A stretch of 19,124 bases of DNA from a virus. Taxonomy: Duplodnaviria; Heunggongvirae; Uroviricota; Caudoviricetes. Under the pieces are notes generated by a model. That model was not told the origin of the DNA and did no database searches. It was given only the letters and a program-made list of their open reading frames with translations. Shown here one piece after another: positions 8,501 through 18,297 of this stretch. The stretch lies in the IMG/VR virus record IMGVR_UViG_2695420427_000009; one strand, 5' to 3'. The position numbers and the translations under genes are program-made. The stretch's first letter is position 1. Each line of letters opens with the position of its first letter.

Positions 8501-9537
8501 GTCCGCAGGCCGGTATTCCCTTTTCCTTCTGTAGCTGATTTCCGGTCATTATCCAGTGCGCAGGTGATTTTTGCCGCCGGGTACATGTTTACCAGTTGTT
8601 CCACAACATGAACCATGTTGTTAGCGGATACAGCGACAACCACAGCGTCAAAGCGTTTATCTTTTTTCGTGGCAAGCCAGATGGATGCACCAGTAGCAAA
8701 ACCTTCTGTAACAGCGATGTTTTGCGCCCCTTTCAGCTCACCGATAACAAAGCAGGCACCGACGAAATCGCCGCTGGTTACGGCGCTGGTCTGGTATTTT
8801 CCACCTTGTTTGTCGATTCGCTGCCAACCAACAATACGACCATCGTAACGACCGTCCAGGTGAGCCAGAGGGATAGCCATATACGTGGTTGGCCCCCTGC
8901 TCCATTTTGCGCTGTCGTGACTGGTCACGCGACGCACATCACACGAATTAAAAACGTCACGAATACCTTTTTTAATCGCATATGGCCATGAGCCGTCTTC
9001 TGCAGGAGCATGTTCCCAAGCACTGTGGAATGCCAGCCATCCCAGCAAACGTTCATGGTCCATTTGGTTGTTTTTCAGGTCATTAATTCGTTTTTGTTCT
9101 TCACGGCGACGACGTGCTTCGGCCTGACGTTCTATTCTTGCCCGTTCTTCTTCCGGTTGTGCGACCACGGTCGCATTATTCCGTTGTTGCTCACGGCGAT
9201 ATTCAGAAAACAGGAAGGAGAAACCGCTCCATGAGCCAGCATCGCTGCCTTTATGGACGAAGTTAATGAACGGGTAATCAATCCCTTTGCTGTGTTCCAG
9301 CCGGGAGTAAATTTCTACGCGTCCTTTGAGGCTCTTTTCGAGAGCTTCTGGGGATGTTTTATTGTATGAAGAGTAACGCTCAACACCCCCGCGAGGGTTG
9401 AGTTGGATGTTGTCGGAACAGGCAGACCAGTTGATACCAGCCATCTGTGCCAGCTCGGTTAGTTCATCCCGTGCTGCTTCAATTAGCGAGAACGGATCGC
9501 TGCCAAAGCGATCCGCATAGAAATCGTTTAATGTCAT
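5542..9537 (-). CDS. repA: Replication protein RepA, primase-helicase (1331 aa)
   Basis: Size matches N15 RepA (~1320 aa); N-terminal primase-like region with acidic motifs (TEGFATGASI, ALDNDRKS); central Walker A VRAGMGSGKST; located between the ant region and cB as in N15. Confidence 0.9.
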   Translation of the reverse strand: MTLNDFYADRFGSDPFSLIEAARDELTELAQMAGINWSACSDNIQLNPRGGVERYSSYNKTSPEALEKSLKGRVEIYSRLEHSKGIDYPFINFVHKGSDAGSWSGFSFLFSEYRREQQRNNATVVAQPEEERARIERQAEARRRREEQKRINDLKNNQMDHERLLGWLAFHSAWEHAPAEDGSWPYAIKKGIRDVFNSCDVRRVTSHDSAKWSRGPTTYMAIPLAHLDGRYDGRIVGWQRIDKQGGKYQTSAVTSGDFVGACFVIGELKGAQNIAVTEGFATGASIWLATKKDKRFDAVVVAVSANNMVHVVEQLVNMYPAAKITCALDNDRKSATEGKGNTGLRTGYEILSKFNDVRCVYPTFEDDPQMECSDFNDLHKLRGLRETARQLFATANRLKTGTDLLSLTLNRLKTIKRDNRRTFAKELLRAVDIGMLTCPVPNSPSDLFNMFCIALREIGLENIYRATVKDHIARRLNKKCRIAQAPRSFSERITDPNKRPQHITYKRFETSVMTDDVLKYVQSLQGIVIVRAGMGSGKSTGLLRPLMHSSERGISVAHRVSLIGGLWEMMTEGKGVKADILHYQDPGYQEMAPYASKLTICINSIVKNCWQPLMRQHDYFGFDEATQGLRAVLSGRAMENPVAVFNTLIDALARTEQHPIMVDADANDLLVDLAELAMKRREELGLPAWLQIHVIELPVDVRNRETGEPIRVFYTEKDRIMTEVVKAVSNGEKIMLATDSSTFAEDVTATLRMHFPGKKFLCVNQKNKPEPEVEAFTNQPKKMVKKYDGLIYSPSISSGVSIEQKHFDRHFGMFCGEVVPSDAVQMLRRDRTAKEFIIGFDKARAKRETDPQKIERAFAQALLATAGMNGELTDVVFDGDRISMGVANTDFTRMKIKAAAIEATARNDYASNMICIMHSDGYKVSPLATDYAANDIGKELRKEARDIVWEQTLDLHLNTETPQESEREELLKKRALTLEEQAKLVRWDIENELKLPVEEGTLKFYFDGARDKVRRYETMLLDEVTARRYDREEAAINFTYAYRQAGQWQYFVVTAMTREQADDVFKTKFPGIIDHKVKATPTVEVGARGFYALKSATLRQYFIDCGINPETMTGEATQERLKFARDNLMTAERRDLLNNVLHIGGFMTPKGKPKVPEALFKNICDSLGLKTGKRRGRDGDKRPTLRFVEPESAAFMLDILAQRQKDGLTLKTRKAEKTAIEMDRDLDLNIYMDDKTRSTNEQVQNAPHSVISEALAVLPVVVPESWAMSALSGEELATMSSWSSASIAMTFASLYLTEFMDHLSSNELRRLREYITGNSPCSYEEQGAFYG
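5824..5872. other. Origin-like structure inside the 3-prime part of repA: inverted repeat GGATCGCG / CGCGATCC flanking AT-rich CATATATATATT, with three GATC sites
   Basis: Seen directly in sequence; N15 ori is reported to lie within the 3-prime part of repA (established knowledge); exact correspondence not verifiable here. Confidence 0.3.
8916..8929. repeat. Palindrome CGTGAC-tg-GTCACG (copy 2 of palindrome family B), inside repA coding sequence
   Basis: Exact 12-mer GTGACTGGTCAC shared with 14851-14862 and, in opposite orientation, with 3650-3661. Confidence 0.6.
9158..9175. other. SopB-type centromere-like palindrome TGTGCGACC-ac-GGTCGCA (copy 1 of family A), inside repA coding sequence
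   Basis: Arms TGCGACC / GGTCGCA with 2-bp centre; 6 of 7 arm positions match the F-plasmid sopC core TGGGACC-AC-GGTCCCA as I recall it; same element at 11602 and 16589. Confidence 0.6.
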
Positions 9538-10443: not shown

Positions 10444-10692
10444 ATGAGATTTATTGCTTATAATAACCGCATGAAACCAGAAGAACTTATTCGCCACTTT
10501 GGCAGTGTAGAAAAAGCAGCGGCTGGGGTAGGTGTAACACCCGGTGCTGTTTACCAATGGTTAACCGCTGGAGAGATTCCTTCATTGCGGCAAAGTGATA
10601 TTGAAGTTCGTACTGCTTACAAGCTGAAGAGTGACTTTACAACTCGGCGGGTAAAGCAGTCGATTAAGGAGAGCCGTAAGCGTGGAGCTTGA
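10444..10692 (+). CDS. cro: Cro-like HTH regulator (82 aa)
   Basis: Small ORF divergent from cB with HTH SVEKAAAGVGVTPGAVYQWL; an alternative start at M10 (10471) is possible. Confidence 0.7.
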   Translation: MRFIAYNNRMKPEELIRHFGSVEKAAAGVGVTPGAVYQWLTAGEIPSLRQSDIEVRTAYKLKSDFTTRRVKQSIKESRKRGA

Positions 10693-11392
10693 GTATATAC
10701 GCAGCTGCGTCTCCACGGCATTGGCTGATATTCATTATCGCCAGCGTGGCATCCTAGAGGTCCAGCTTGAGCAGATGCGTCTAGGCAGATCAGGACGCTT
10801 TAACAATAAACCAGTCCGGTCAATCAGTGTAGGTGATGATAACTCATACGAAGTGTCCGTTCCTGCTGAGCCGGTTAGATTCCACCAGGGGAAAACATTT
10901 AAACAATCATCAATGTTGCTCACTGATATTGATTTTCAGAGCGCCAGCTGGCGCAGGGCTATTGGTCAGTTGAATAACGAGGAATCAGCCTGGCTTTATT
11001 ATTGCTACGGATGCAAGCCTGATTACAACAATGATGTGATTGTTTGTCAGTGGTTATGGCTTGATTTTCTGGTTGCTCATTCGGGGGGCGGCTTTAAAAA
11101 AATGAAGGCCTCCACGAAAAAAGCCATGCGGAAATTGATTTATTACGCGGCACAGCAGGTTAAATCAGAACTTACGTGTGCTGAGGCAGTTGATGAGAGA
11201 GAACAGGACAGGCATCTGAGTTTTCTACTGAATATATCTATTGATAGCTGGAGACAAGATTATAAAGAACGCTGGCTTTTAATTAAGTCGCGATGTCTGA
11301 GCTTAAATCGAACTGCATTATTAAATGCGGCGGAGAAGCGCAGTGAAATCATCAAACGCCATCGGGCAGGAAGTGCCATTCTGCCTTTGTAA
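10682..11392 (+). CDS. Q-like putative late-gene antiterminator (236 aa from GTG 10682; first in-frame ATG at 10775)
   Basis: Assigned mainly by synteny (cB-cro-Q order as in N15 and lambdoid phages) and a Cys-containing motif YYCYGC; no motif I can verify by eye. Confidence 0.4.
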   Translation: MELEYIRSCVSTALADIHYRQRGILEVQLEQMRLGRSGRFNNKPVRSISVGDDNSYEVSVPAEPVRFHQGKTFKQSSMLLTDIDFQSASWRRAIGQLNNEESAWLYYCYGCKPDYNNDVIVCQWLWLDFLVAHSGGGFKKMKASTKKAMRKLIYYAAQQVKSELTCAEAVDEREQDRHLSFLLNISIDSWRQDYKERWLLIKSRCLSLNRTALLNAAEKRSEIIKRHRAGSAILPL

Positions 11393-11399
11393 ACAAGTT

Positions 11400-11645
11400 A
11401 TGTTCAGGAAACCGTCGAAGCCAGAATTAAGGTATTCGGGGGTAAGAAATGAATATGTTATCTGGTGTCCAACTTGTGGTTACAGGACACGACCAGATAG
11501 TAATAAGCAGTCTGTAATTGCCGATTGGTATTTATCAAATCAGCCAGGTAATAAGCATATAGAAAATCTTTGGATTAAGCGTTACTTGGAAATCAGAGAG
11601 GGTGCGACCGTGGTCGCACAAGAAAATGAAAATAACGCCATTTAA
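11400..11645 (+). CDS. Small Cys-containing protein (81 aa), unknown function
   Basis: First ATG after the Q-like stop; sequence MFRKPSKPELRYSGVRNEYVIWCPTCGY...; its 3-prime end contains a family A centromere-like palindrome. Confidence 0.45.
   Translation: MFRKPSKPELRYSGVRNEYVIWCPTCGYRTRPDSNKQSVIADWYLSNQPGNKHIENLWIKRYLEIREGATVVAQENENNAI
11602..11619. other. SopB-type centromere-like palindrome GTGCGACC-gt-GGTCGCAC (copy 2 of family A)
   Basis: Perfect 8-bp arms; the 18-mer is the exact reverse complement of the core at 16591-16608. Confidence 0.6.
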
Positions 11646-14527: not shown

Positions 14528-14854
14528 ATGGCGCTGACACCGGCAGAACGGCAAAGAAGACGCAGGGAACGGTTGAAGAAGGAAGGAACATCAAGACGTG
14601 ACTGGATTCTGGAACCTGACGAGTTACGTATGTTGGGGGAAATTTGTGTATTGCGTAGACCAGGGCGAGTTCCATATTCAGAGAACGAAGTCATCGGACT
14701 GCTGATCAGGAAAAACTATAAGGAGTTGCAGAAACAGCTATCTACTACTTGTCCGCGATGTGGTCAAAAAATGCCTGTTTCAGAATGCATTTTTGATGGT
14801 GAAGGCTCATGCCACCTTACAACCACGAGGCTGAAACTTGCGCTCAAAGTGTGA
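14528..14854 (+). CDS. Hypothetical basic protein with C-terminal Cys cluster (108 aa)
   Basis: Strong RBS TAGGAGGA 5 nt upstream; Arg-rich N-terminus (RQRRRRERLKKEG) and CPRCG...C...C Zn-ribbon-like tail. Confidence 0.6.
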   Translation: MALTPAERQRRRRERLKKEGTSRRDWILEPDELRMLGEICVLRRPGRVPYSENEVIGLLIRKNYKELQKQLSTTCPRCGQKMPVSECIFDGEGSCHLTTTRLKLALKV

Positions 14855-14862
14855 CTGGTCAC
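14851..14862. repeat. Palindrome GTGAC-tg-GTCAC (copy 3 of palindrome family B), spanning the stop codon of the 14528 ORF
   Basis: Exact 12-mer identical to 8917-8928. Confidence 0.6.
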
Positions 14863-14872
14863 GGAGGGATAA

Positions 14873-15028
14873 ATGGACAAAAAGGCATTGCTTTTTGAAA
14901 TGATACGAAAACGGAGCGAAAAGAGCTTTTCTGATGGTGGTGATGGGCTTTTGAAAGTGGTTGGGCGAGGCGTAGGAAGGGAACATAAGTATCGGACTAC
15001 AAAGATATTTAACCAGTTAATCCATTGA
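14873..15028 (+). CDS. Small hypothetical protein (51 aa), absent from the ORF track
   Basis: ATG preceded by GGAGGG RBS at 7-nt spacing; MDKKALLFEMIRKRSEKSF... Confidence 0.35.
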   Translation: MDKKALLFEMIRKRSEKSFSDGGDGLLKVVGRGVGREHKYRTTKIFNQLIH

Positions 15029-15358: not shown

Positions 15359-15646
15359 TCAATAGACGGCATTAATATTAATCGTTGCACCGCATGCTTG
15401 GGCATATTTTGATAAAGTTTTCATGCTTGCCCCTAAAGGATTGCTTTCCAGGCGGCTGATAGCTGACGGGCGCAATCCCATTCGTTCAGCCAGAGCTGAC
15501 TTCGTTAAACCTGCTCTTTCCCTCATTTCGTATAACATTTCGACCATCTCCAGCTCTTTATCGGCCTCTTCATATCCTTTGATGGCTTCTGGAGTGTTGA
15601 GAAGTTTTTCTTTTACTTCGTTAAACGGGATGCCTTTCGCTTTCAT
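15359..15646 (-). CDS. HigA-like antitoxin, HTH_XRE family (95 aa)
   Basis: HTH LTKSALAERMGLRPSAISRLE; start overlaps toxin stop (TGATG); located downstream of toxin as in HigBA-type modules. Confidence 0.75.
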   Translation of the reverse strand: MKAKGIPFNEVKEKLLNTPEAIKGYEEADKELEMVEMLYEMRERAGLTKSALAERMGLRPSAISRLESNPLGASMKTLSKYAQACGATININAVY

Positions 15647-15957
15647 CAGTTCATCTCCTTCAGGCGAGTTCTGGCGATTTCGATAGCCTTCACCGGTGTT
15701 TTCTGTGTCTTTTTTACAAATGCATGCAATAGATAAATTTCGTTACCAGTCGCGTAGGCGTACAGCGTTCTTGCGATGTTTTTATCCCCTACTCGTAGTT
15801 CAAAAAGCCCTCCACCTATTACACGGCTATGGGGCATCTTCAGTTTGTTGCCTTCTTTCTCCAGTCGCTCAATTAATCTGGTCATGCGACCTCGCAAATC
15901 ATCTGGTAGTTCAAGCAGTTCATCCAGTGCTGCAGGGTGGGTTATCACGTTAAACAT
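15646..15957 (-). CDS. RelE/ParE-superfamily toxin, HigB-like / phage Gp49-like (103 aa)
   Basis: GGAGG RBS 8 nt upstream; sequence ...GGGLFELRVGDKNIARTLYAYATGNEIYLLHAFVKKTQKTP matches the Gp49-like toxin pattern; toxin-first gene order. Confidence 0.75.
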   Translation of the reverse strand: MFNVITHPAALDELLELPDDLRGRMTRLIERLEKEGNKLKMPHSRVIGGGLFELRVGDKNIARTLYAYATGNEIYLLHAFVKKTQKTPVKAIEIARTRLKEMN

Positions 15958-16122: not shown

Positions 16123-16344
16123 ATGAATTATCAAGGTAACGAAAAAATGCGCGACGACGTTGCGGAGATAGCTAACGAACTGTATGAGTTGTGGCAGAAG
16201 GTTGAACGTTTCGAAAAGGAATATGGTTTCAACAGTACCAACCTAGCAGACCGACTGGCTGGTCGCTTAGTTGGGACTATGGGGCCAAAACTGGCTGAGT
16301 TGAACCGCTTTATGGCTGATGTTGATTTCCAGTTTCAAGATTGA
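16123..16344 (+). CDS. Hypothetical protein (73 aa from ATG 16123; ORF track starts at 16105)
   Basis: GGAGGA RBS lies inside the 16105 ORF, 6 nt upstream of the second ATG, so 16123 is the more likely start. Confidence 0.5.
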   Translation: MNYQGNEKMRDDVAEIANELYELWQKVERFEKEYGFNSTNLADRLAGRLVGTMGPKLAELNRFMADVDFQFQD

Positions 16345-16357
16345 TTAGAGAGGCGTT

Positions 16358-16585
16358 ATGAATATTAATGAAATTCGTGGAAATATGACTGAAGCGGCCC
16401 TGAGTGTGGAATGTGTTATGCGTGGATACCCACGCATTTCCCTGAAAGAGTTAAGCGAAGCCTGTTTTTTGAGTCAAGCTGCCGTTGAATTTATCATCGA
16501 ACAGATGATCTGTTTTGGGGTTGCAAAGCGTAGCGGGTCTGGTCGATATTCTTTGACCGATGAATATAAGCAGGCAACTTTCTAA
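16358..16585 (+). CDS. Small putative winged-helix DNA-binding protein (75 aa)
   Basis: RBS GAGAGG upstream; sequence ...ISLKELSEACFLSQAAVEFIIEQMICFGVAKRSGSGRYSLT resembles small wHTH regulators; weak assignment. Confidence 0.45.
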   Translation: MNINEIRGNMTEAALSVECVMRGYPRISLKELSEACFLSQAAVEFIIEQMICFGVAKRSGSGRYSLTDEYKQATF

Positions 16586-16588
16586 AAA

Positions 16589-16610
16589 CTGTGCGACCAC
16601 GGTCGCACAG
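16589..16610. other. SopB-type centromere-like palindrome CTGTGCGACC-ac-GGTCGCACAG (copy 3 of family A), intergenic
   Basis: Perfect 10-bp arms with 2-bp centre, 4 nt after the stop of the 16358 ORF. Confidence 0.65.
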
Positions 16611-16693
16611 CACAAAAACGAAAAAGCTTGGCAAAATGACGGTTTTTAGTTATTGTTTTGTTAAGTTGGGTTTTTTGTACCCAATAGATAACA

Positions 16694-16717
16694 AGCCGCC
16701 TTTATGGCGGTTTTTTT
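16694..16717 (+). terminator. Intrinsic terminator (AGCCGCC-tttat-GGCGG followed by T7)
   Basis: GC stem followed directly by TTTTTTT on the plus strand. Confidence 0.6.
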
Positions 16718-16734
16718 GTGCCTGAAAAGTGGGC

Positions 16735-16760
16735 GCAGGACAAGTTGCAGCTTGTCCTGC
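16735..16760. promoter_or_regulatory. Strong hairpin / palindrome GCAGGACAAG-ttgcag-CTTGTCCTGC
   Basis: Perfect 10-bp stem, 6-nt loop; no U tract; upstream of the methyltransferase gene. Confidence 0.4.
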
Positions 16761-16803
16761 GGTCAACCCATGCCAGAGCTATAGGCTGAACCTAAAGCCC
16801 ACC

Positions 16804-16817
16804 CGCGATGCGCATCG
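16804..16817. promoter_or_regulatory. Perfect 14-bp palindrome GCGATGCGCATCGC immediately upstream of the methyltransferase
   Basis: Seen directly; overlaps the alternative upstream ATG (16808) of the methyltransferase ORF. Confidence 0.4.
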
Positions 16818-16852
16818 CCGGGTTAGCTTACCCAGGCAAAAAAATAATAGCT

Positions 16853-17929
16853 ATGTTCAAAACCACTAATATTCATGGCGCACAACTCGTTTGCGCAGAT
16901 TCTCTGCAATTTATCAAAACCATCCCTGATAACTCGGTCAATTTGATTGCAACAGACCCACCATACTTCGGCGTAAAGGCTAACGCATGGGATAACCAGT
17001 GGGATAGCGATGCTGACTTTTTGGGGTGGATTGACGAATTTTTGGCAGAATTTTGGCGGATATTGGCCCCTAATGGCAGCCTGTATATGTTTACCGGCTC
17101 TCGCCTTGCGTCAAAAATTGAATTATTAACTCGCGACCGTTTCAATGTTCTGAACCATATCATTTGGGCTAAACCCAGTGGTATGTGGCGCGGTTGTCAT
17201 AAAGAAAGTTTAAGGGCTTATTTTCCTGCTACTGAAAGAATATTATTTGCAGAGCATTACGGCACGTCAGGTTATGCTAAAGGTCAGTCAGGTTATGCTT
17301 CAAAATGTGCAGATTTAAGAAAAAATATTTTTTCTCCACTAATTGATGCTTTTTCGCTGGCTCGCCGTCAGTTAGATATATCAGCCGCAGACATTAATTC
17401 AGCGACAGGAAAGCAGATGTGTTCACACTGGTTTTCTTATTCGCAGTGGCGGCTTCCATCATTAATTGATTTTAATAAACTATGCGAATTATTTCGCAGG
17501 AAGGCAGATTCACTCGGTGTCCCGTGTCCATATCCTTTTAATGTTGATTATTCAGAACATGAAAAGCGTTATAGCGATCTGAAATTGCATTATGAGGAAG
17601 AAAAGAAGCAGTATGATGATTTGAAGGCTCAGTATGAAAATTTACGCCGTCCATTTCATGTTACTGCTGATGTACCTTATACCGATGTATGGGAGTTTCC
17701 TCCTGTGCAATATTATCCTGGCAAGCACCCATGTGAAAAACCTGCAGCGATGATGGAACATATTATAAAGAGTAGTTCACGCCCCGGAGATATCGTTGCC
17801 GATTTCTTTATGGGATCAGGCTCAACTATTAAAGCTGCGCTGAAGTTAGGACGTCAGGCAATAGGTATTGAGATTGAGGGCGAACGTTATCTTCAGACAG
17901 TTGATGAAGTGAAAAAGTTATTTGAGTAA
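16853..17929 (+). CDS. Orphan DNA methyltransferase, beta-class (N6-adenine or N4-cytosine; motif IV DPPY before motif I FxGxG), 358 aa
   Basis: N-terminal DPPY and C-terminal FFMGSGST with an intervening target-recognition region; no restriction endonuclease partner visible; start could be the upstream ATG at 16808. Confidence 0.75.
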   Translation: MFKTTNIHGAQLVCADSLQFIKTIPDNSVNLIATDPPYFGVKANAWDNQWDSDADFLGWIDEFLAEFWRILAPNGSLYMFTGSRLASKIELLTRDRFNVLNHIIWAKPSGMWRGCHKESLRAYFPATERILFAEHYGTSGYAKGQSGYASKCADLRKNIFSPLIDAFSLARRQLDISAADINSATGKQMCSHWFSYSQWRLPSLIDFNKLCELFRRKADSLGVPCPYPFNVDYSEHEKRYSDLKLHYEEEKKQYDDLKAQYENLRRPFHVTADVPYTDVWEFPPVQYYPGKHPCEKPAAMMEHIIKSSSRPGDIVADFFMGSGSTIKAALKLGRQAIGIEIEGERYLQTVDEVKKLFE

Positions 17930-17943
17930 CTGGAGAATATATT

Positions 17944-17972
17944 CCCCTGCCGTTTTTGGTAGGGGTTATTTT
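17944..17972 (+). terminator. Probable intrinsic terminator after the methyltransferase (CCCCTGCC-gttttt-GGTAGGGG followed by TTATTTT)
   Basis: Stem with G-U pairs followed by a U-rich tract, 15 nt after the stop codon. Confidence 0.45.
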
Positions 17973-18024
17973 CGCCATATAGTTTCCAAGCCGAAACCTC
18001 AGCAACTATTGCGAGGTAAGAGAT

Positions 18025-18297
18025 ATGAAGATGGATGAACGATACAGCAGTGCATCTTATGGTAGCGCTGGTCTTGCTGCGTTCTTTGCCAGCCTGTCAT
18101 TGCAGGATTGGGGCTTCATTATCGGTGTCGCGTTCAGCATTATCCTCGGTGTGCTTACATACCGGCTCAATAAACGCGAGCAGATGAAGCGCACGAAGAT
18201 ATTGCAGGACATATTGGATAAAACTAATACCAATAATCTTTCTGCTACAGCGATGGTTATTGGAGAGCTGGGGAAGAGAGCACCGAAGGAAATATGA
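18025..18297 (+). CDS. Class II holin / pinholin-like (90 aa) with dual-start motif
   Basis: RBS GAGG; N-terminus M-K-M (Met1-Lys2-Met3 dual start); two TM segments ([13 protein letters not shown] and [18 protein letters not shown]); immediately upstream of the endolysin with overlapping start/stop. Confidence 0.75.

Follow-up and report, generated by a model that had tools for sequence, protein, structure and literature searches.

Which of the elements crowded into the 270 bp upstream of an orphan phage DNA methyltransferase gene serve that gene, and at what level do they act? The question is raised by a 19,124-nt stretch of Caudoviricetes DNA (IMG/VR record IMGVR_UViG_2695420427_000009; the whole stretch is called the window below), in which a methylase gene of the M.EcoGII family is preceded by a centromere-like palindrome, an intrinsic terminator, a hairpin with a 10-bp stem and a perfect 14-bp palindrome. 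A sequence-only reading had listed these elements, all of which are present where it placed them, the methylase included, and had regarded the 270 bp as one control region dedicated to the methylase. It is likely, instead, that the region consists of two modules, an N15-type late switch followed by a cassette of structured leader and methylase (Table 1). The promoter, terminator, centromere and methylase of N15-type phages are known already; what is new is that the two 'palindromes' closest to the gene are part of a widespread leader motif.

Conservation between the terminator and the methylase AUG equals or exceeds that of the coding sequence. This stretch aligns among N15-like phages and with the regions upstream of the methylase genes of the lambdoid phages mEp460 and phiP27, and most of 80 IMG/VR loci with methylase homologues carry the same pattern, designated the class-A leader. 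A covariance model (CM) named R1, built from 12 lambdoid-phage leaders only, matched the plus strand of the window at 16725-16855 (32.7 bits, E ~1e-5) and also detected the leaders of N15, phiKO2, PY54 and Klebsiella phages, all of them immediately before the methylase AUG. A scan of IMG/VR with a sequence pattern blind to genes gave 121 matches, 103 of them with a methylase start at the fixed distance; among the 18 others the CM confirmed one, in which the leader is joined to an internally deleted methylase. Contigs representing one genome per species yielded 54 CM-confirmed leaders, whose hosts are of Enterobacterales type (Providencia, Proteus, Morganella, Erwinia, Hafnia and Salmonella) with the exception of three oddly labelled records. 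All CM-confirmed instances examined sit directly 5' of a gene of the M.EcoGII-type methylase family. Two side observations concern this distribution. The three odd records (L260, L261 and L265), labelled Limoniibacter, a Geobacteraceae metagenome-assembled genome (MAG) and a Bacillus MAG, carry CM-confirmed leaders and probably represent enterobacterial prophage DNA that was mis-binned or is a contaminant. The single confirmed match among the 18 belongs to a prophage remnant (locus L108, 2096-2458), whose deleted methylase retains just its C-terminal part, which binds S-adenosylmethionine (SAM).

The consensus of the leader reads AUGGGCG, a hairpin, CCCRU...ACGGG, AAC.AARGCCCA, a hairpin with a self-complementary loop, AGCYUA, 22 nt and AUG, where AUGGGCG, ARGCCCA and AGCYUA are the invariant boxes classed as single-stranded. 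Helices P2 and P4, which correspond to the 10-bp-stem hairpin and the 14-bp palindrome, are its best-supported helices. P2 has 14-nt arms of 93% complementarity with a perfect core of 11 bp; both sides have changed in six of its seven outer and two of its three inner pairs, while 93-99% of the alignment cells are paired. In P4 all seven pairs show changes on both sides with 91% of cells paired, and the loop is self-complementary in each clade, being GCGC, UGCA or CGCG. The palindrome of the window, GCGATGCGCATCGC (16805-16818), lies within the inverted repeat with 10-nt arms that forms P4, and the in-frame ATG at 16808 is inside it. P1 is nearly invariant, its terminal pair being A-U, G-C or A-C, the closing pair of P3 covaries (UA 33, CG 19, AU 11), and P5 is paired in 97-99.6% of cells with one covarying pair (GC 62, AU 6, GU 2). 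The spacer from AGCYUA to AUG is fixed at 22 nt (constant in 100 of 103 IMG/VR instances), and none of the class-A leaders shows a Shine-Dalgarno sequence before the AUG.

Covariation was assessed on 70 distinct sequences and on 66 genome-derived sequences. Paired cells amounted to 89.6 and 87.9%, respectively, compared with 74.7 and 75.5% in shuffles and with 23-41 and 24-37% when partners were slid, and the pairs changed on both sides numbered 24 of 32 and 22 of 29. On all five measures and in both sets, none of 500 shuffles reached the observed value. At the level of sequence comparison, the leader is thus conserved, covarying and exclusively associated with the methylase. These data bear directly on the view of the sequence-only reading that hairpin and palindrome are separate sites, i.e. 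independent DNA operators through which dimeric proteins (the partition protein, the product gp51 of the preceding gene or another regulator) would control transcription of the methylase. P2 and P4 are indeed palindromic as DNA, the winged-helix gene encoding gp51 (phrog_331) is syntenic with the leader, and the inverted repeat at 16589 is a genuine protein-binding site. However, sequence, length, bulges and loops of the stems vary freely while complementarity is retained, the non-palindromic long-range pairs of P3 and P5 covary as well, the element lies downstream of promoter and terminator, and it is also found in lambdoid phages that have no partition system. Such operators are considered very unlikely, and the two sites are better described as helices of one conserved leader.

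Several further pairings and interpretations were tried and set aside. A helix of AUGGGC with the 5' strand of P3 (a:b) is paired in 75% of cells, shows no covariation and has one invariant side; it is kept only as a possible alternative conformer. For helix e:f (AGCYU with AGGYU), the CM alignment was no better than shuffles or slid partners. In minimum free energy (MFE) folds of lambdoid leaders, a UCAC region pairs with a CUGAUC box immediately before the AUG, but this pairing is not kept in the Klebsiella and PY54 types. The terminator is not part of the motif, given that several lambdoid leaders have none upstream. Nor does the leader look like coding sequence: its only conserved ATG (16771) opens reading frames whose length varies by clade, and its indels are not multiples of three. 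As a separate observation, an outer helix P0 (16720-16724 with 16833-16837, GCCUG/CAGGC) may enclose the whole leader in N15-like phages; it reads GCCUU/AAGGC in the Klebsiella types, which is a compensatory change, and was not seen in lambdoid leaders.

On which strand does the element act? It is probable that the leader is a cis element of the sense strand. This strand is favoured because no sigma70-like minus-strand promoter was found from ATG-60 to ATG+260 in 13 representatives, the terminator hairpin is not trailed by a U-tract on the minus strand in the alignment of relatives, P2 and P5 contain G-U pairs that exist on the plus strand only, unpaired regions and junctions are A-rich, and the spacing to the AUG is fixed. 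Several points weigh against this interpretation and the late-switch and methylase roles proposed below. The mismatches of P3 and of the P1 end are mainly A-C or C-A, which would be G-U on the minus strand, and folding energies are slightly lower for that strand: RNAalifold gave -32.0 for the minus and -20.9 for the plus strand, with mean MFE values of -54.6 and -50.2 kcal/mol. P3 forms badly in N15-type leaders and MFE folds vary by clade, which makes the full architecture provisional; two nucleotides, moreover, are claimed by both P1 and P5. A transposon insertion in the methylase of P840 left lysis and lysogeny intact, showing that the gene is dispensable in the laboratory. Lastly, transcription, Q dependence, SopB binding, methylation and the effect of the leader are predictions from sequence. 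The first two of these points would suit a cis-antisense RNA, transcribed from the minus strand over the 5' region of the methylase and silencing leaky methylase mRNA in the lysogen. Non-canonical helix cells are mostly A-C or C-A (95 versus 20 G-U, and 168 versus 35), the three-way junction is recovered in the lower minus-strand consensus fold, and in the window the minus strand folds at -59 and the plus strand at -51 kcal/mol. Nevertheless, an antisense RNA appears improbable in view of the missing promoter and U-tract, the plus-strand G-U pairs of P2 and P5, and the fixed spacing and A-rich junctions that suit a leader on the sense strand.

As for the function of the sense-strand leader, our best guess is that it gates translation of a dose-sensitive methylase gene that has no Shine-Dalgarno sequence. 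The second module (16725-17929) would be a mobile cassette, in which a structured 5' leader of ~130 nt travels with an M.EcoGII-family methylase and acts in cis on the sense mRNA, setting or gating the initiation of translation. As triggers one may consider alternative pairings, a ligand or the binding of a protein, which could be the methylase or the winged-helix protein encoded next to it. In silico the invariant AUGGGC box is able to pair with either of two partners, and alternative conformers of the leader are possible. A particular form of this idea is that the leader is a riboswitch for a small molecule relevant to methylation, such as SAM or S-adenosylhomocysteine (SAH). The leader is a conserved, structured domain of a 5' untranslated region supported by covariation, as is typical of riboswitches; junction architecture, invariant unpaired nucleotides and the alternative pairings of the AUGGGC box would fit, as would the unrelated class-B leader described below, since different riboswitch classes may share a ligand. 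However, the leader has no similarity to any Rfam riboswitch and no clear expression platform, and there is little obvious need for metabolite sensing in a late phage gene. A riboswitch is, in our judgement, very unlikely, and a translational gate of less specified trigger is preferred.

Translational control of a harmful or dose-sensitive phage enzyme that modifies DNA or binds nucleic acids through the structure of the 5' leader is generally known from the com-mom system of Mu and from the autogenous operators of T4 gp32, gp43 and regA. These have no sequence or structural relation to the leader of the window, and the likeness would be one of mechanism only. The arrangement also recalls the controller (C) protein and C-box of restriction-modification (R-M) systems, in that the gene of a small helix-turn-helix (HTH) protein lies just upstream of a methylase with palindromes between them. 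Unlike those systems, the window lacks a nuclease, the small protein is not a C-protein but a winged helix (PHROG 331), and the palindromes behave as RNA helices.

The gene encoding gp51 accompanies the leader in most cases: 147 of 165 leader instances have a PHROG 331-type open reading frame (ORF) ending 1-190 nt upstream, and the ORF preceding the phiP27 leader likewise belongs to phrog_331 (1.4e-37). In N15-like phages the order is gp51 gene, centromere, promoter, terminator and leader. The AlphaFold2 model of gp51 (pLDDT 90.5) has a winged-helix fold like that of MarR or IclR. The protein may be a partner of the leader or of the methylase, a candidate for regulating the cassette or for reading methylated DNA. 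Synteny of gp51 with leader and methylase is common to N15-like and lambdoid phages.

A different leader, class B, precedes other orthologues of the same methylase (55-60% identity), occupying ~150 nt upstream of the ATG at loci L043, L045, L047, L048, L051, L060, L062, L068, L077 and L078. It is conserved and differs from class A: a long-range helix of 11 bp (GCCUUGAGUAC/GUAUUCAAGGC) is accompanied by two hairpins that covary and by the invariant junctions CUGAGA and AGAGGAAGCA, and a normal GGAG Shine-Dalgarno sequence comes next. No matching Rfam family was found for class B.

For the class-A leader, a search of the window and 14 related loci against Rfam 15 revealed no relevant family at E <= 1. 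Weak matches to AgrB and ctRNA_pGA1 were far under the gathering scores and were dismissed; they lay over the terminator hairpin, that of ctRNA_pGA1 extending into the leader. Literature searches turned up no description of this leader, which looks undescribed so far. As a tentative proposal, held with somewhat less than even confidence, the leader and its relatives would represent a new family of cis-regulatory RNAs for M.EcoGII-type non-specific adenine methylases of enterobacterial phages, a protein-binding or ligand-sensing translational gate by which a genome-wide methylase stays off until late lytic growth, with a second, unrelated leader class serving the same purpose elsewhere. M.EcoGII-type enzymes methylate adenines in any context, are harmful when over-expressed and are widely used as tools, and their silence in lysogens has been credited only to transcription. 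The conserved leader, supported by covariation and spaced constantly from a start codon without Shine-Dalgarno sequence, points to a second, post-transcriptional layer of safety. The leader is also a new RNA motif that can be offered to Rfam.

Table 1. Features of the methylase locus and its trans-acting partner, in positions of the window.
Feature	Coordinates	Strand	Evidence or remark
Structured leader of the methylase gene, class-A motif, ~130 nt	16725..16852	+	covariance model, covariation
P1 5' strand GUGGGC	16729..16734	+	pairs with GCCCAC 16797-16802; TGGGCG invariant in genome-derived alignment
P2 hairpin (the 10-bp-stem hairpin)	16734..16761	+	covariation
P1 3' strand GCCCAC	16797..16802	+	overlaps P5 5' strand AAGC 16795-16798
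P4 hairpin (the 14-bp palindrome)	16802..16821	+	covariation
Invariant AGCYUA box	16825..16830	+	GCUU 16826-29 pairs with AAGC 16795-98 (P5)
Orphan beta-class DNA adenine methyltransferase, M.EcoGII family, 358 aa	16853..17929	+	Pfam, motif order, homology
gp51-like small winged-helix protein, PHROG 331	16358..16585	+	phrog_331 at 3e-32
SopB-type centromere inverted repeat, positional equivalent of N15 IR3	16589..16610		perfect 10+2+10 palindrome
Late promoter: -35 TTGGCA, 17-nt spacer, -10 TATTGT	16628..16656	+	promoter scan 9/12
Conserved TAAGTTGGG, initially transcribed region	16662..16670	+	candidate -10-like pause or Q-loading (qut) element
Intrinsic terminator, tR'-like	16693..16717	+	terminator scan; annotated terminator in N15 and phiKO2
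Second intrinsic terminator, methylase-holin gap	17944..17975	+	scan; fold -19.3 kcal/mol, z = -4.75
Q antiterminator gene	10682..11392	+	PF06323 Phage_antiter_Q, 2e-84; trans-acting partner of late promoter

The description of the gene as an orphan beta-class methylase in a late operon holds. The protein scores 158.1 bits for PF01555 (N6_N4_Mtase; E = 4e-46), where the cut-off is 26.7, DPPY (residues 35-38) lies N-terminal to FFMGSGS (318-324) with the target recognition domain between them, which is the beta-class order, and relatives in the PDB include M.RsrI, M.MboIIA and CcrM. No nuclease of R-M type was detected in 19 scanned ORFs, both methylase neighbours included; the neighbourhood consists of two small ORFs (PHROG 4830 and PHROG 331) and a holin. 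M.EcoGII, whose sequence was taken from the supplement of PMC11551740, is a beta-class enzyme as well and 56% identical over 358 aa (E = 6e-142). Encoded by E. coli prophages, M.EcoGII is a non-specific adenine DNA/RNA methyltransferase, silent in lysogens and deleterious at high expression, for which a role in overcoming host restriction has been proposed; the anti-restriction role suggested earlier for the window enzyme fits the 56% identity. Compared with M.EcoGII, the window enzyme differs in its central region and has a 9-residue insertion; its specificity is predicted, and it is probably non-specific like M.EcoGII. The methylase would most likely mark progeny DNA against host restriction, and its production in the lysogen would be harmful. 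The window methylase and M.EcoGII both sit between Q and the lysis or stx genes, as do the homologues of the lambdoid phages mEp460 and phiP27, and in these two phages the class-A leader stands upstream.

An alternative start codon overlapping the 14-bp palindrome had also been proposed. The in-frame ATG at 16808 exists and would give 373 aa, but it is not conserved and is a spurious start: phiKO2, PY54 and lambdoid phages have stops there, and homology to all relatives begins at the ATG at 16853, hence a protein of 358 aa. In the N15 record (L002, 3550-4638), gp52 is annotated from an internal ATG as 284 aa, and homology to the window protein is uninterrupted from 234 nt further upstream; the true length is probably ~360 aa. 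The record of PhiR46_1, the closest relative, has a coding sequence (CDS) at 14790-14951, corresponding to window positions 16628-16789, for a 53-aa 'hypothetical protein' that runs from the late promoter across the terminator into the leader, half of which it covers, and is almost certainly spurious. Annotation therefore gains in three ways, with the methylase start fixed, a spurious ORF identified and the N15 gp52 entry recognized as truncated.

The first half of the 270 bp (16589-16717) is, by its sequence, a late-operon switch that serves the whole late and lysis operon and not methylase-specific control, in agreement with the annotation of N15 and phiKO2. In the GenBank records of these phages, the order is partition site (phiKO2), -35/-10, rho-independent terminator, gp52 methylase, second terminator and lysis genes, where the second terminator stands at the same place as in the window. 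The window promoter aligns with the annotated -35/-10 of N15; its phiKO2 counterpart, likewise aligned, is labelled 'putative late promoter'. In an alignment of the 330 nt upstream of the methylase from 11 N15-like elements, the repeat, TTGGCA-17-TAT(C/T)(G/T)T, TA(A/T)GTTGG and the terminator were all kept. TA(A/T)GTTGG follows just past the -10 in 11/11 relatives, PY54 included, and corresponds to about -1 to +8 of the putative transcript. The terminator GGCGGTTTTTTT, a hairpin (16693-16713) followed by T7, is invariant across the aligned relatives, and the short late transcript folds at -21.7 kcal/mol (z = -4.2). Ahead of the terminator, this transcript has a second hairpin at 16665-16685 (GUUGGGU...ACCCAAU), and one can be drawn there, from differing sequences, in the Klebsiella, PY54 and N15 types. 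The gene order of N15 around gene 52, phiKO2 and PY54 is the same, with homologous promoter, terminator and leader, methylases of 59-83% identity and the same centromere consensus (for the site in PY54, see below); none of their records annotates the leader.

The window has the three components of a lambda pR'-type switch, namely a Q gene, a sigma70 promoter and, close to the promoter, an intrinsic terminator. By analogy with lambda pR'/qut/tR', RNA polymerase would start near 16663, with the SopB repeat 17 bp 5' of the -35, and cross the -10-like TAAGTTGGG (TAAGTT), which may act as a sigma70-dependent pause or as the site where Q presumably loads. Without Q, transcription would stop at 16693-16717 and leave an RNA of ~55 nt akin to lambda 6S or StxS; with Q, polymerase would read through the terminators at 16693-16717 and 17944 into the methylase and lysis genes. 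Both the dependence on Q and the role of TAAGTTGGG are thus predicted from the lambda model; no Q-binding site was recognized in the sequence. In lambda pR'-qut-tR', with its 6S RNA, and in the StxS system of Stx phages, the late promoter is likewise constitutive, a terminator close to it yields a short RNA, and read-through requires Q (general knowledge; PMC7547250). They differ from the window in that its Q belongs to PF06323 without solved homologue, its short RNA is ~55 nt and a partition site abuts the promoter. A search of the window Q against the PDB found no homologue.

The centromere-like palindrome proved to be a partition-protein site of N15 type. It consists of CTGTGCGACC-AC-GGTCGCACAG, with 10-nt arms of 100% complementarity. 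Its 16-bp core, TGCGACCNNGGTCGCA, occurs in three exact copies in the window (at 9160, 11603 and 16592), and a fourth match has three mismatches; about 0.55 matches would be expected by chance even with three mismatches allowed. In the oligonucleotide table of PMC7205306, the N15 inverted repeat (IR) consensus is identical to the window core, and the cores are those of N15 IR1-IR4. The N15 site upstream of the annotated -35 matches, in core and flanks, the IR3 oligonucleotide of that table, and the phiKO2 record labels the same site 'putative plasmid partitioning site'. Regarding the other two copies, the one at 9160-9175, within the RepA ORF, has flanks resembling N15 IR1, and that at 11603-11618, ~210 bp downstream of Q, has flanks resembling IR2. 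At the corresponding spot (~1455-1475 of their loci), the Yersinia phages PY54 and P840 carry a site of the F-sopC type, TGGGACCAYGGTCCCA, written TGGGACCA(C/T)GGTCCCA, of which the P840 version is exactly the SopB site of F sopC. In the Klebsiella phages 48ST307 and Kpn_R1, this position holds two IR copies in tandem. In the sequences compared, a centromere is kept beside the late promoter even where its specificity differs. That the position persists despite changed partition specificity, as in PY54, supports functional coupling of partition complexes with late transcription, and SopB may affect late expression in the window. A link of Sop to late expression in N15 was reportedly studied by Ravin, Rech and Lane (2008, J Bacteriol 190:3538).

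Gene content and homology identify the window as part of an N15-like linear plasmid-prophage, i.e. a telomere phage. A protelomerase of TelK/TelN type with four TelK domains was found at 106-2001 in the ORF map and Pfam scans, a 1331-aa ORF on the minus strand occupies the RepA position (its counterpart in PhiR46_1 is labelled primase), and Pfam scans assigned a cI-like repressor (cB), Cro and Q to the immunity region. Holin, lysozyme and an Rz-like ORF lie 3' of the methylase region. The sopAB partition operon sits in the other genome arm, beyond the window. Positions 16300-18050 are 98.5% identical to the Escherichia telomere phages PhiR46_1 and YDC107_1, and identity to N15 is 74% at the DNA level over genes 50-52, which places the window in a different species-level lineage. 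On the minus strand at 15359-15957, a Gp49/HigB-like protein and an HTH_3 protein form a probable toxin-antitoxin pair, the counterpart of N15 gp49 and gp48, whose transcription points away from the late promoter region.

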